Shown here in pieces: positions 1 through 34,851 of a stretch of DNA of 37,471 nt. The position numbers and the translations under genes were made by a program. How positions within the stretch are numbered: the stretch's first letter is position 1; each line of letters opens with the position of its first letter. Under the pieces are notes generated by a model. The model ran no database searches and had not been told where the DNA came from. It saw nothing but the letters and a program-made list of their open reading frames with translations. The stretch comes from a virus (Duplodnaviria > Heunggongvirae > Uroviricota > Caudoviricetes). The stretch is from the IMG/VR virus record IMGVR_UViG_2563366824_000004, one strand, 5' to 3'.

Positions 1-1053
1 TTACGGGGTAATGCCAACCGCTGCCGCCACTTTGTCGCCACTTGGCAGCGTTGCCAGAGGATTGAAACGGAGCGCCGTTTCCAGATGATCCGGTGCCAGA
101 TGTGCGTAACGCATAGTCATTTTTATATCGTGGTGTCCGAGAATTTTTTGTAAGGCCAGAATGTTTCCACCCGACATCATGAAGTGCGCCGCAAACGTAT
201 GGCGCAGAACGTGTGTGAGTTGACCGCGAGGGAGCACGATAGACGTTTTTTCCATCACGGATAAAAATTGAAAATAGCAGTCTGTGAAGAAATTGAACCC
301 ATCAAGCGCCATGATCTCTTCGTAAAGCTCTTTACTGATAGGGATGCTTCTGTTTTTCTTCCCCTTCGTTCTTACAAAGGTAATTCGGTATTTGGTCACC
401 TGTGAACGAGTAAGATTTACGGCTTCTCGCCAGCGTGCGCCTGTGCTTAAGCATATCTTAACTACCAGTGCCAGAATTGGGTCCTGACGTTTGCAATCAG
501 CCAGTAATTCAACAATCTGCTCATGGGTAAGCCATGCCATCTCTTTTTCTGCGATGGTGAATTTTCGCATGTTCTCCAGTGGGTTCGGATACGACCATTC
601 GCCCAGGCGGGATAGTTCGCTAAAAACACTACTTAGATAGCTTTGCTCCAGGTTAATGGTGACCGGGCTTGCTCCTTTCTTCCATTTCTCGCTGAAGTAG
701 ATCTCGCCTGTCAGGCGTTTATCTCGATAGTGGGCAAACATTTTAGAGGTGAGATCGGTTGCAAGAGGATTGCCCAGAGCGTCAACCATCAACAGCAATT
801 TGTCATAGACATGCTGCCCAGCTGTCAGAGATTTACCATGTAGTTTGAACCATAGCTCAACCACGTCTTTCAGTGTTCGACGATCCACTGATTCACCCAG
901 CCAGGGCTTTGCTTCGGTTTCTTCCATCGTGTGGCGCTCAAAAGCCAGTGCTTCGCCTTTGGTGACGAATTGTTTACGCACACGACGCCCACTTCGTCCG
1001 GCGGGGTAACATTCGCAAAGCCATTTCCCAGTGGTGAGTTTTCGTACTGCCAT
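1..1053 (-). CDS. int: Tyrosine integrase (P2-like Int)
   Basis: C-terminal catalytic region HVLRHTFAAHF...GHHDIKMTMRYAHL (R..H..R..Y tyrosine recombinase signature). The ORF track extends to 1209, but the family-typical start MAVRKL is the ATG at 1051-1053. Stop codon is at 1-3. Confidence 0.9.
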   Translation of the reverse strand: MAVRKLTTGKWLCECYPAGRSGRRVRKQFVTKGEALAFERHTMEETEAKPWLGESVDRRTLKDVVELWFKLHGKSLTAGQHVYDKLLLMVDALGNPLATDLTSKMFAHYRDKRLTGEIYFSEKWKKGASPVTINLEQSYLSSVFSELSRLGEWSYPNPLENMRKFTIAEKEMAWLTHEQIVELLADCKRQDPILALVVKICLSTGARWREAVNLTRSQVTKYRITFVRTKGKKNRSIPISKELYEEIMALDGFNFFTDCYFQFLSVMEKTSIVLPRGQLTHVLRHTFAAHFMMSGGNILALQKILGHHDIKMTMRYAHLAPDHLETALRFNPLATLPSGDKVAAAVGITP

Positions 1054-1241
1054 AAAAAATGCCCTCCAGTAGAGAGCATTTTCACTGTATGTATAACCAG
1101 TGTCAATGTATGAAATCCTACGACCATACATCTCACTGAAGCCATAATTAAGTTGGCTATTCTTTTTGCTATGTGAGCATGTAACTTTTGCGGTTAACCT
1201 GCGGCTCATTTTTATTTTAGACGCAGATATAAAAGCAAAAG

Positions 1242-1433
1242 TTATCGTGAGTTTTTAGTACAGATTTTTTTGGATTTACTAATAGTTCCATCATTGCAAA
1301 CGAATTTGCCATCTGAGGTACAGTGAGAAACACCTCCCTTTTTCCCTGAGCAGGGATAATTTCTAGCATAGGTAGTTAGTGGGTTTAATAACAAAGAACA
1401 TGACAAAACCACAAAAAATACCTTACCAAGCAT
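1242..1433 (-). CDS. Small Cys-rich secreted protein or lipoprotein candidate (63 aa), hypothetical
   Basis: N-terminal hydrophobic signal-like segment [16 protein letters not shown] with a possible lipobox, and 5 Cys in the mature part; sits between int and cI on the same strand; AT-rich. Confidence 0.4.
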
Positions 1434-1448
1434 AGTTTCCTCCCGGTA

Positions 1449-3771: not shown

Positions 3772-4005
3772 ATGCGTAATATTGAAACCCTCACGACTAA
3801 AACCGGACCGGATGACGCAGGGCTTAATATTTTACTGACAGAGGCTCGTCTGGAAGAACGCCGGGCAAGGGCTGAAGCAATGGCTGCTCGCCTTGATAGC
3901 CTGGCGTGTCATATCTCATCCCGCCAGCTAAACCACGTGGAAGCGGCAGAACTGCTGCGCGTGACTGCTGAAGCAATCCAGAACGAAGCGCAGGAGATCC
4001 ACTAA
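3772..4005 (+). CDS. Hypothetical early protein
   Basis: ATG at 3772 preceded by AGGAGAA; the ORF-track start at 3766 is TTG. Charged helical protein. Confidence 0.55.
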   Translation: MRNIETLTTKTGPDDAGLNILLTEARLEERRARAEAMAARLDSLACHISSRQLNHVEAAELLRVTAEAIQNEAQEIH

Positions 4006-4232
4006 TGGCTGATGCAATGGATCTCGTACAGCAGCGCGTTGAAGAAGAACGCCAGCGCCATATCCGTGCAGCCCGTGCCAAATCACCGGGCGTGTCACGC
4101 GTACTTTGCATTGAATGTGAAGCGCCAATTCCGCCAGCACGACGCCGCGCCATTCCGGGAGTGCAGCTTTGCATTACCTGTCAGGAAATCGCAGAACTGA
4201 AAGGCAAACATTACAACGGAGGTGCTGTATGA
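4005..4232 (+). CDS. TraR/DksA-family C4 zinc-finger protein (75 aa)
   Basis: CIECEAPIPPARRRAIPGVQLCITC: CxxC-N17-CxxC near the C-terminus after a charged helical N-terminus, typical of phage TraR-like proteins. Confidence 0.75.
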   Translation: MADAMDLVQQRVEEERQRHIRAARAKSPGVSRVLCIECEAPIPPARRRAIPGVQLCITCQEIAELKGKHYNGGAV

Positions 4233-34616: not shown

Positions 34617-34702
34617 CGCTGCCGCCATTTTGTCGCCATCGTTAAAAAACAGTGCTTCTAACATCATGATTTTAAACATCTTAAATTTCAGGCAACAAAA
34701 AA

Positions 34703-34739
34703 CCCATCAACCTTGAACCGAAATGGCGGGGTTGATGGG
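34703..34739 (-). terminator. Candidate intrinsic terminator for ybjL (perfect 10-bp stem, T-run on the minus strand)
   Basis: CCCATCAACC...GGTTGATGGG, preceded on the plus strand by an A-run; the loop is large (17 nt), so confidence is modest. Confidence 0.4.
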
Positions 34740-34851
34740 CTCCACAAAATGGGGACATCAAAGAAAAGCAGTGGCACTAATTAAGACTGATGCCCTGCGG
34801 AAAAGTTCTGCGGTTGTGCAAAAAAATTTCATTTTCAGGGCAACTTCAGTT

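Follow-up and report, generated by a model that had tools for sequence, protein, structure and literature searches.

A YdcA family gene between cI and int of a 186-like prophage and its possible role at the envelope of the lysogen

Results

The ORF at 1242-1433 is a prophage-borne copy of ydcA

The small open reading frame (ORF) at positions 1242-1433 of the Caudoviricetes record IMGVR_UViG_2563366824_000004, a stretch of 37,471 nucleotides to which we refer as the window, lies between the repressor gene cI and the integrase gene int of a 186-like prophage. It is not a new gene, but an annotated member of an already named family and a prophage-borne copy of YdcA. The identical protein is present in RefSeq under the name 'YdcA family protein' (WP_000900883.1). 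The translated product scores 115.8 bits with NCBIfam model NF007463 (PRK10040.1-2), for which the curated cut-off is 93, its residues 5-63 covering positions 1-58 of the 58-position model, and it matches phrog_6000 (PHROG 6000) with E = 1.9e-34. The Pfam family PF27300 ('YdcA') is precomputed on all close homologues, including the 98%-identical cluster representative P0001; our local Pfam copy is older than PF27300, which was hence read from the precomputed annotation of these relatives. The family is thus covered by PF27300, the PRK10040 models NF007462, NF007463 and NF007464, and phrog_6000, and every column that is invariant in the family (P, C, S, G, G, C, C, S, S, C) has its residue in the ORF product. 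The local Pfam scan listed GULLO2 below threshold only, and a suspected likeness to DUF3761 found no support in the Pfam scans.

The gene and its parts are as follows:

1242-1433, minus strand: ydcA-like coding sequence, 63 amino acids plus stop codon, YdcA family (NF007463, PF27300, phrog_6000), from the ORF listing and its translation
1365-1433, minus strand: signal peptide part, residues 1-23, predicted type I with cleavage between TYA and RN, from the hydrophobicity profile and the -3/-1 rule
1245-1364, minus strand: mature domain, residues 24-63 (40 amino acids), from composition, alignments and an AlphaFold2 model

A first-pass annotation of the window had described a small cysteine-rich ORF of 63 residues, with five cysteines, between cI and int on the lysogenic strand, and the coordinates and translation bear this out. 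The frame comprises 63 codons with an ATG start and a TAA stop, exactly at 1242-1433 on the minus strand, and its cysteines occupy residues 12, 28, 38, 46 and 58, the first in a hydrophobic leader and the other four in the mature part.

The closest known counterpart is YdcA of Escherichia coli K-12 (b1419), a 57-residue protein with a signal sequence that is predicted to be periplasmic. Both proteins combine a signal peptide with a mature domain of about 35-40 residues that contains four cysteines and the motif PCSGxKGG...CNDGxxSxSKKxC, and the mature part of the window protein is identical to that of K-12 YdcA at 26 of 33 positions (~79%). The K-12 sequence used here was checked in two ways: it scores 147 bits over the full NF007462 model, and its mature part is the same as that of database protein P0100. 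The two genes differ in model assignment, K-12 YdcA passing NF007462 whereas the window protein matches NF007463 and not NF007462. They also differ in setting, the K-12 gene lying at the chromosomal rydC-ydcA locus and the window gene in a prophage repressor operon. Expression of the prophage copy would therefore be expected to follow cI, in contrast to the reported control of K-12 ydcA by YdcI and acid.

The prophage copy is common. The block int-ydcA-cI is present at a coverage of at least 80% in 590 of the 5,426 complete E. coli genomes, and the exact protein occurs on more than 1,000 contigs. When the cI-ydcA region was compared by megablast with 50,697 phage records, only the end of the integrase gene matched; this prophage type, common in E. 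coli, is thus apparently not represented by any isolated phage among those records. Literature searches on the protein accessions and family identifiers returned nothing relevant, and most mentions of 'ydcA' in papers concern unrelated namesakes, namely a Bacillus subtilis rhomboid, a plasmid methylase and a gene of a gonococcal island.

The mature domain is under purifying selection

Codon-level comparison of nine prophage copies points to very strong purifying selection on the mature domain, which diverges less than the neighbouring cI. Within the mature domain, the window differs from E. coli B by nine synonymous changes and one non-synonymous change, from strain VG38-53E1 by 12 and three, and from a 69%-identical E. 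coli variant by 21 and four, respectively. Among enterobacterial prophages, the non-synonymous rate dN of the mature domain is 0.04-0.09 as opposed to 0.2-0.7 in the flanking cI, with the synonymous rate dS saturated. The leader peptide changes freely while the mature part stays fixed.

Disruption of the ORF in close relatives, which the first-pass annotation had named as evidence against its proposal, was not found in the related prophages examined. The 63-codon frame is intact in all 80 prophage contigs from IMG/VR, where the sole amino-acid polymorphism is T20A in the leader; these contigs were chosen for an identical mature part, so that the information they add independently is the intact start codon and leader. 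A coding sequence is likewise annotated here in each of the 29 covering RefSeq E. coli rows, sampled across 89-100% DNA identity. One RefSeq E. coli strain carries an IS1 element in the spacer between ydcA and int, and its ydcA is still intact. Frameshifted variants are rare in the protein database, forming clusters of 1-10 members as opposed to 355 for the intact cluster. The IMG/VR scan yielded near-identical copies of the same prophage only and no new contexts.

The ORF is short and the region AT-rich, so that a chance frame or a non-coding spacer might be suspected. The full-length matches to curated models, the 1,429 database clusters at E <= 0.001, the predominance of synonymous changes and the intact frame in every related prophage examined refute this explanation, which we consider extremely improbable.

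The product is predicted to be a soluble periplasmic peptide

The first-pass annotation had also noted a signal-like segment at the N-terminus, and the leader does have the corresponding layout: a basic residue at K4, a hydrophobic core of 12 residues and a proline-containing c-region (NPLTTYA), with TYA directly before the mature part. Alignments of 29 and of 40 homologues show alanine at position -1 throughout. In one alignment (A1), the top row lacks the initial Met, which leaves the conclusions unchanged. By the hydrophobicity profile and the -3/-1 rule, we predict a type I leader that would be cleaved after Ala23 by signal peptidase I. The resulting mature peptide would comprise 40 residues (4.3 kDa, pI 9.7, net charge about +7) with four invariant cysteines, the motif PCSGKKGG, a second motif ending in -x-C, and conserved lysines in GKKGG and SKSKK. 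AlphaFold2, given an alignment of 40 sequences, models it as a small beta-hairpin fold (mean pLDDT 80.7). The product is accordingly predicted to be a soluble periplasmic peptide.

The alternative that the protein is a lipoprotein, lipidated at Cys12 after processing by signal peptidase II, had been raised in the first-pass annotation and takes its appeal from the local sequence V-L-S-C, which resembles a lipobox. It is contradicted by the sequence of the protein and of its homologues, and we reject it as highly improbable. The PROSITE profile PS51257 fails, since the cysteine lies at position 12 (15-35 is needed) and K4 falls inside the six-residue window that must be uncharged. At the position of Cys12, many homologues lack a cysteine and in others it is preceded by F, I or V; a lipobox is found in only three of 242 family members. 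Moreover, the conserved type I cleavage site lies eleven residues downstream of Cys12.

The YdcA domain is probably related to the lobes of Legionella Dis2

Searches of the Protein Data Bank (PDB) with the family profile retrieved one bacterial protein, Dis2 (Lpg0823) of Legionella (7MUC chain AN), at E = 8e-5 when the profile was built from full-length family sequences. Part of this score derives from the signal peptide; the profile of the mature part alone gives E = 0.027, level with LDL-receptor class A repeats. The structural comparison points to the same protein: when the AlphaFold model was searched with Foldseek against 350,542 PDB chains, Dis2 ranked first (probability 0.80, query-normalised TM score 0.61, 36% identity over 39 columns), with an E-value of 0.43 that is not significant alone. 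A homologue of Dis2 carries a precomputed PF27300 match (Dis2-type database proteins P0294 and P0295). Finally, alignment of the YdcA domain to the two Dis2 lobes with hhalign gave a probability of 95.3% (E = 2e-8); in the alignment used for this test (A4), rows 2-3 open with six residues (DGCCSK) taken from the PDB chain of Dis2, since their own database sequences begin only at MGG. Searching the PDB with single family members that contain two repeats gave marginal matches or none.

We treat the matches to LDL-receptor repeats, lysozyme and a potato proteinase inhibitor as noise from the cysteine pattern. In the Foldseek list, a single VLDL-receptor entry appears, at rank 16 (probability 0.03), and neither lysozyme nor a proteinase inhibitor is listed. 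In the PDB structure search, the YdcA domain showed no likeness to any known DNA-binding fold.

Taken together, these comparisons suggest that Dis2 consists of two YdcA-type domains in tandem. Dis2, the only characterised relative that we found, is an outer-membrane-proximal subunit of the Dot/Icm secretion system that contacts DotK, DotC and DotD and not the channel, and it has been called Legionella-specific, with no structural relatives reported (PMC8486379; PMC12716638). Each of its lobes shares with YdcA the motif C-x-K-x-GG-[IV]-x-x-C...V-C-N-[ND]-G-x-x-S, and both proteins are small, exported and disulfide-rich. The window protein thus resembles a Dis2 lobe in sequence and predicted fold, and it departs from Dis2 in architecture and association. 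Dis2 is a stoichiometric part of a secretion machine, with two lobes and five disulfides (PMC8486379), whereas the window protein has a single lobe and two possible disulfides; Dis2 is tied to Dot/Icm, whereas the neighbourhood of the window gene is that of a 186-like prophage, with no secretion-system genes nearby.

Members of the family recur on mobile elements and in fusions

The family comprises 312 representatives at 50% clustering and, at 90%, the 1,429 clusters mentioned above. Its members are spread over gamma-, beta- and alphaproteobacteria, and most are stand-alone proteins of 55-100 residues. Some are found in chromosomal housekeeping settings, including ydcA of E. coli K-12. Others are carried by temperate phages of Haemophilus, Moraxella, Acinetobacter and Pseudomonas. 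In the Acinetobacter Vieuvirus phages, the homologue is unannotated and lies among genes annotated as hypothetical only, and in the Moraxella phages it is flanked by genes with coat and tail protein annotations. In Xenorhabdus, a family member adjoins ogr at the end of a P2-like prophage. The family gene is one of five on 3.9-kb MOBQ plasmids of Acinetobacter, among them pApiMCR53a (L030 728-904), where it lies beside a small traD gene. In a type VI secretion system (T6SS) cluster on a Citrobacter plasmid (L032 4926-5327), a YdcA-domain gene directly follows tssE and precedes a gene for a GIY-YIG nuclease.

Among 20 longer representatives, the domain is fused to Endonuclease_NS in four and to SNase in one, and P0247 is a further nuclease fusion. 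The YdcA domain is N-terminal to the nuclease wherever both parts are visible (P0118 looks like a fragment), and a low-complexity stretch separates the two in the fusion sequences inspected (P0123 and P0178). Other fusion partners are VasL, a T6SS protein, and the PBCV basic-adaptor motif, and some proteins contain two or three tandem copies of the domain.

Features of the wider family referred to here are the following:

L004 3917-4102: intact, unannotated YdcA-family ORF of 61 codons in Acinetobacter phage Ab11510-phi
P0123, P0157, P0178, P0118, P0168, P0247, P0087 and P0105: proteins with fusions or tandem copies

In Moraxella phage Mcat22 (L003 3933-4124), an annotated coding sequence of 63 codons runs in a frame other than that of the YdcA homologue, which comprises 46 codons from a TTG (3971-4111). 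The leader of the Mcat22 homologue appears to be split across two frames, which may reflect a frameshift, a pseudogene or a sequencing error.

ydcA is a constant partner of cI

The start of the window corresponds to the left arm of a 186-like (P2-related) prophage. The genes int, ydcA and cI all lie on the minus strand, in this order along the window, and the plus strand beyond cI carries an Apl/Cox-like gene, cII, fil and replication genes. The elements flanking ydcA are:

1439-1444, minus strand: ribosome-binding site GGGAGG, 5 nt before the ydcA ATG, inside the 15-nt gap after the cI stop codon
1449-2018, minus strand: cI repressor gene, upstream operon partner, with the PGAP start (a longer GTG-initiated ORF reaches 2105), from Pfam and RefSeq
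1-1053, minus strand: int (integrase), with the PGAP start, downstream neighbour 188 nt past the ydcA stop codon, with Int_N and Phage_integrase domains, from Pfam-type domain matches and RefSeq

The cI product contains Phage_CI_repr (3.3e-31) and Phage_CI_C (4.7e-29) domains by Pfam. The GGGAGG is kept before ydcA in 76 of 80 IMG/VR loci, and a sequence scan of the cI-ydcA junction found no promoter-like or terminator-like site on the minus strand. Co-transcription of ydcA with cI is therefore the natural reading of this arrangement, and since ydcA lies on the lysogenic strand directly behind cI, its product is very likely made in lysogens.

The low GC content that the first-pass annotation had remarked on relative to int is real (35.4% in the ORF, 48.7% in int), and it is shared by cI (38.2%) and by the spacer between ORF and int (36.7%). 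The ORF is thus no compositional island by itself; the low-GC block consists of cI, the ORF and the spacer.

Phage 186 offers the closest described locus. Its lysogenic module (pL/pE - cI - int - orf69) and the window have in common the convergent pR/pL region, apl, Fil, and a cII gene whose 5' end carries a CII operator. They differ at the junction of cI and int: the lysogenic operon of phage 186 is cI-int-orf69, with neither gene nor spacer between the first two, whereas in the window ydcA and a 188-nt spacer with regulatory-looking elements are interposed. Since nothing lies between cI and int in phage 186, ydcA and the spacer look like an insertion. The order cI-then-ydcA, with gaps of 0-53 nt, recurs in 186-like prophages of other E. 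coli immunity types and of Hafnia, Enterobacter and Yersinia. In Haemophilus phage HP2 (NC_003315, ~2486-2668; L001 3420-3602), a homologue with an intact frame of 60 codons, missing from the annotation, has its start at the final base of the cI stop codon. In the Enterobacter relatives, ydcA abuts int with nothing in between.

These comparisons bear on the earlier proposal that the gene is a moron. In its favour, phage 186, a close relative, lacks the gene at this junction; yet it is constant in many other 186-like prophages and accompanies cI across genera. Nor does it have a promoter and terminator of its own or a distinct base composition: the gap to cI is 15 nt, its GC content is like that of cI, and the only downstream terminator-like hairpin is the one just before int. 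The label therefore holds for the comparison with phage 186 and fails on autonomy.

The spacer may give int its own control

The spacer before int contains three elements:

1054-1082, minus strand: terminator-like hairpin AAAATGCTCTC-TACTG-GAGGGCATTTT followed by TT, ending immediately before the int ATG, from RNA folding
1106-1131, minus strand: inverted repeat ATGTATG-N12-CATACAT upstream of int, with half-sites of the type found in the 186 CII operator at pE
1078-1106, minus strand: promoter-like TTGACA-17-GAAAAT directly after the inverted repeat, 10/12 in a consensus scan, with its -10 element overlapping the 5' arm of the hairpin

The Shine-Dalgarno sequence of int (GGAGG) lies within the 3' arm of the hairpin. 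The spacer folds better than all 200 shuffled versions (z = -5.5), and a simple terminator scan did not flag the hairpin at 1054-1082. In more distant prophages (L011 and L015), the stem differs in sequence (AGTCCTCAGACATGAGGACT or AGCCCTCAGACATGAGGGCT), while a hairpin followed by T6 is kept before the start codon. The annotated CII operator at pE of phage 186 is ATGTTTG-N13-CAAACAT, and a degenerate version of this repeat occurs at two places only in the 37-kb window, at pE (2432-2458) and at the site before int, as opposed to 0.03 expected. Related loci have the repeat at the same two positions, and those in which int abuts its upstream gene, as in phage 186 and the Enterobacter relatives, lack the site before int. 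The TTGACx element and its spacing are kept in L009, L011, L015 and L020.

From this arrangement we infer that lysogenic transcripts may largely stop after ydcA and that int may have its own, possibly CII-dependent, promoter. The single int-cI transcription unit assumed in the first-pass annotation is consequently plausible at its cI end, where ydcA is tightly joined to the repressor gene, and needs qualifying at the other, where the hairpin, the CII-operator-like repeat and the promoter-like site precede int.

A long hairpin at 1183-1243 begins right at the ydcA stop codon. Read on the plus strand, positions 1188-1204 form a terminator-like TTGCGGTTAACCTGCGG followed by a T-rich tail, which could stop antisense transcription from the int side.

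The prophage probably occupies the 3' end of rybB

The right end of the prophage carries the gene for the small RNA RybB (Rfam, 105 bits; window 34694-34772, minus strand). The 3' end of this gene includes a 14-bp sequence, AACAAAAAACCCAT, that recurs on the other side of the prophage between rcdA and int (L002 2914-2927), and it is the only exact repeat of at least 12 bp between the two prophage flanks. This suggests that the prophage integrates at the 3' end of rybB.

Discussion

A possible envelope-docking role in the lysogen

In the interpretation that we favour, ydcA and cI would share transcripts from the lysogenic promoters, pL and, while lysogeny is being established, pE, and the product of ydcA would thus be made continuously in lysogens. 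The peptide would be exported by the Sec pathway, cleaved after Ala23 and oxidized in the periplasm to a two-disulfide beta-hairpin mini-domain. These steps, from expression with cI to disulfide formation, have good support in the sequence features described above. The mini-domain would then serve as a docking or binding module for a conserved, probably anionic, outer-membrane-proximal component of the envelope. As a free and constitutively made domain, it would add to the regulated YdcA of the host and occupy or modify a site in the envelope. The outcome would be a lysogenic-conversion factor that alters the envelope, for instance by giving protection from stress or from incoming macromolecules, and no phage-specific exclusion protein. 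To this further part, a periplasmic conversion factor that docks on the envelope, we assign slightly less than an even chance.

A docking module is suggested because the mature part is near-invariant across genera while the leader and cI diverge, because it presents a conserved basic surface motif, because the lobes of Dis2 dock on the envelope lipoproteins DotC and DotD and on DotK, and because the domain stands N-terminal to secreted nucleases, behind a linker in the sequences inspected. Three points weigh against this interpretation. Dis2 is dispensable (PMC12716638) and so gives a location and no function; the nuclease fusions could equally mean DNA binding; and the operon is shared with defence candidates in some relatives, which points towards a role in defence. 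The likelihoods that we attach to docking and to the stress, DNA-binding and exclusion alternatives below overlap.

A narrower form of the docking interpretation holds that a constitutive extra copy of the acid- and organic-acid-responsive YdcA strengthens the envelope of the lysogen. In E. coli W, a delta-ydcA mutant is sensitive to 300 mM 3-hydroxypropionate, and ydcA is reportedly induced at pH 5 via YdcI (PMC7642389). The high identity of the mature domain to that of K-12 YdcA, the strongly basic nature of the peptide and the chromosomal housekeeping contexts of some members fit such a role as well. The phenotype is, however, a single one, from one paper and without a mechanism, and it is overridden by deletion of yieP (PMC7642389). 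Stress tolerance also leaves the carriage of the gene on small mobilisable plasmids and in secretion-system loci unexplained, and we regard it as a tentative option on the unlikely side.

The nuclease fusions suggest instead that the free domain could sequester or mark DNA entering the periplasm, that is, act as a periplasmic nucleic-acid-binding module. SNase or Endonuclease_NS follows the YdcA domain in five of the 20 longer representatives and, additionally, a nuclease does so in P0247; a GIY-YIG nuclease gene adjoins the YdcA-domain gene in the T6SS cluster; and the peptide has a net charge of +7 with conserved lysines in GKKGG and SKSKK. Several hosts of phage-borne copies also belong to naturally competent genera. 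In the only solved relative, however, the domain touches other proteins but not the substrate channel, the long low-complexity stretch before the nuclease in the fusions inspected suits an anchor no less than a DNA clamp, and the domain has no similarity to known DNA-binding folds. A nucleic-acid-binding role is in our view distinctly doubtful.

The cI-ydcA pair next to an apparent hotspot of defence candidates

The region beside ydcA differs among relatives of the prophage. In some E. coli strains, ydcA is followed by a KAP NTPase that matches the PADLOC candidate PDC-S20 over its full length (E = 2e-171), and in Hafnia it is followed by an uncharacterised protein of 347 residues. Other relatives carry a PDC-S21 or HEC-04 candidate after int, the former match being to a DUF4917 protein and the latter to an AAA ATPase. 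The positions of this cargo are:

L009 1142-2473; L011 5198-6529; L015 5247-6290; L019 5281-6843; L021 5315-6301: variable cargo in relatives, between ydcA and int or just past int

From these gene orders, the slot looks like a hotspot for defence cargo beside the constant cI-ydcA pair. The window protein itself matched none of the 5,027 models of PADLOC-DB 2.0 at E <= 1.

This neighbourhood lends some appeal to the idea of superinfection or entry exclusion, in which the periplasmic protein would block the entry of phage or conjugative DNA, for instance by sitting at an outer-membrane-proximal site that the injecting machine requires or by binding DNA within the periplasm. As the product of a gene in the repressor operon, it would be present before a superinfecting phage arrives, and the defence candidates PDC-S20, PDC-S21 and HEC-04 occupy neighbouring slots in relatives. 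The recurrence of the family on temperate phages and on 3.9-kb MOBQ plasmids beside traD, the place of its relative Dis2 in a type IV secretion machine and the fusion of the domain to secreted nucleases are also compatible with exclusion. Against it stand the lack of a PADLOC match and the near-invariance of the mature domain, which evolves more slowly than cI and is close to the product of a chromosomal gene of phage-sensitive laboratory strains; phage-specific exclusion proteins are expected to vary more between phages. Moreover, ydcA is the constant part of the locus and the defence candidates are its variable part. Overall, we consider exclusion unlikely.

Small envelope proteins that are made from prophage lysogenic transcripts or act as exclusion factors are well known, including Bor of lambda, Sp and Imm of T4, Cor of phi80 and N15, Llp of T5 and Ltp of TP-J34, each with a demonstrated phenotype. 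The window protein is like them in being a small exported protein of a resident phage with a presumed action at the envelope, and it has no sequence relationship to them. Of these, Bor, Cor, Llp and Ltp are membrane-anchored proteins or lipoproteins, whereas a soluble periplasmic product is predicted for the window gene.

A broader proposal goes further: the YdcA domain could be a general outer-membrane-proximal docking module of envelope-spanning translocation machines, as in Dis2 of the Dot/Icm system, and the stand-alone copies in the repressor operons of 186-like and HP2-like phages and on very small mobilisable plasmids could be broad entry-exclusion factors that block incoming DNA in the periplasm, whether it arrives by phage injection or by conjugation. 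This is a speculative and rather improbable scenario; if true, it would reveal a new, widespread class of exclusion proteins hidden among 'hypothetical' small genes.

Implications for the YdcA family

The gene itself is no discovery, as the identical protein is named in RefSeq and occurs in roughly one tenth of complete E. coli genomes. Its interest is modest and lies in the family: YdcA is extremely conserved, is a fixed partner of the repressor gene in a large group of P2/186-like prophages, and turns up again on further temperate phages, very small plasmids and loci of secretion systems. Useful by-products of the analysis are the unannotated homologues in HP2 and the Acinetobacter phages, the possible CII-controlled promoter of int, the nuclease fusions, the pairing of cI and ydcA beside an apparent hotspot of defence cargo, and the probable relationship between YdcA and Dis2, through which the family would gain a first solved structure together with a location.

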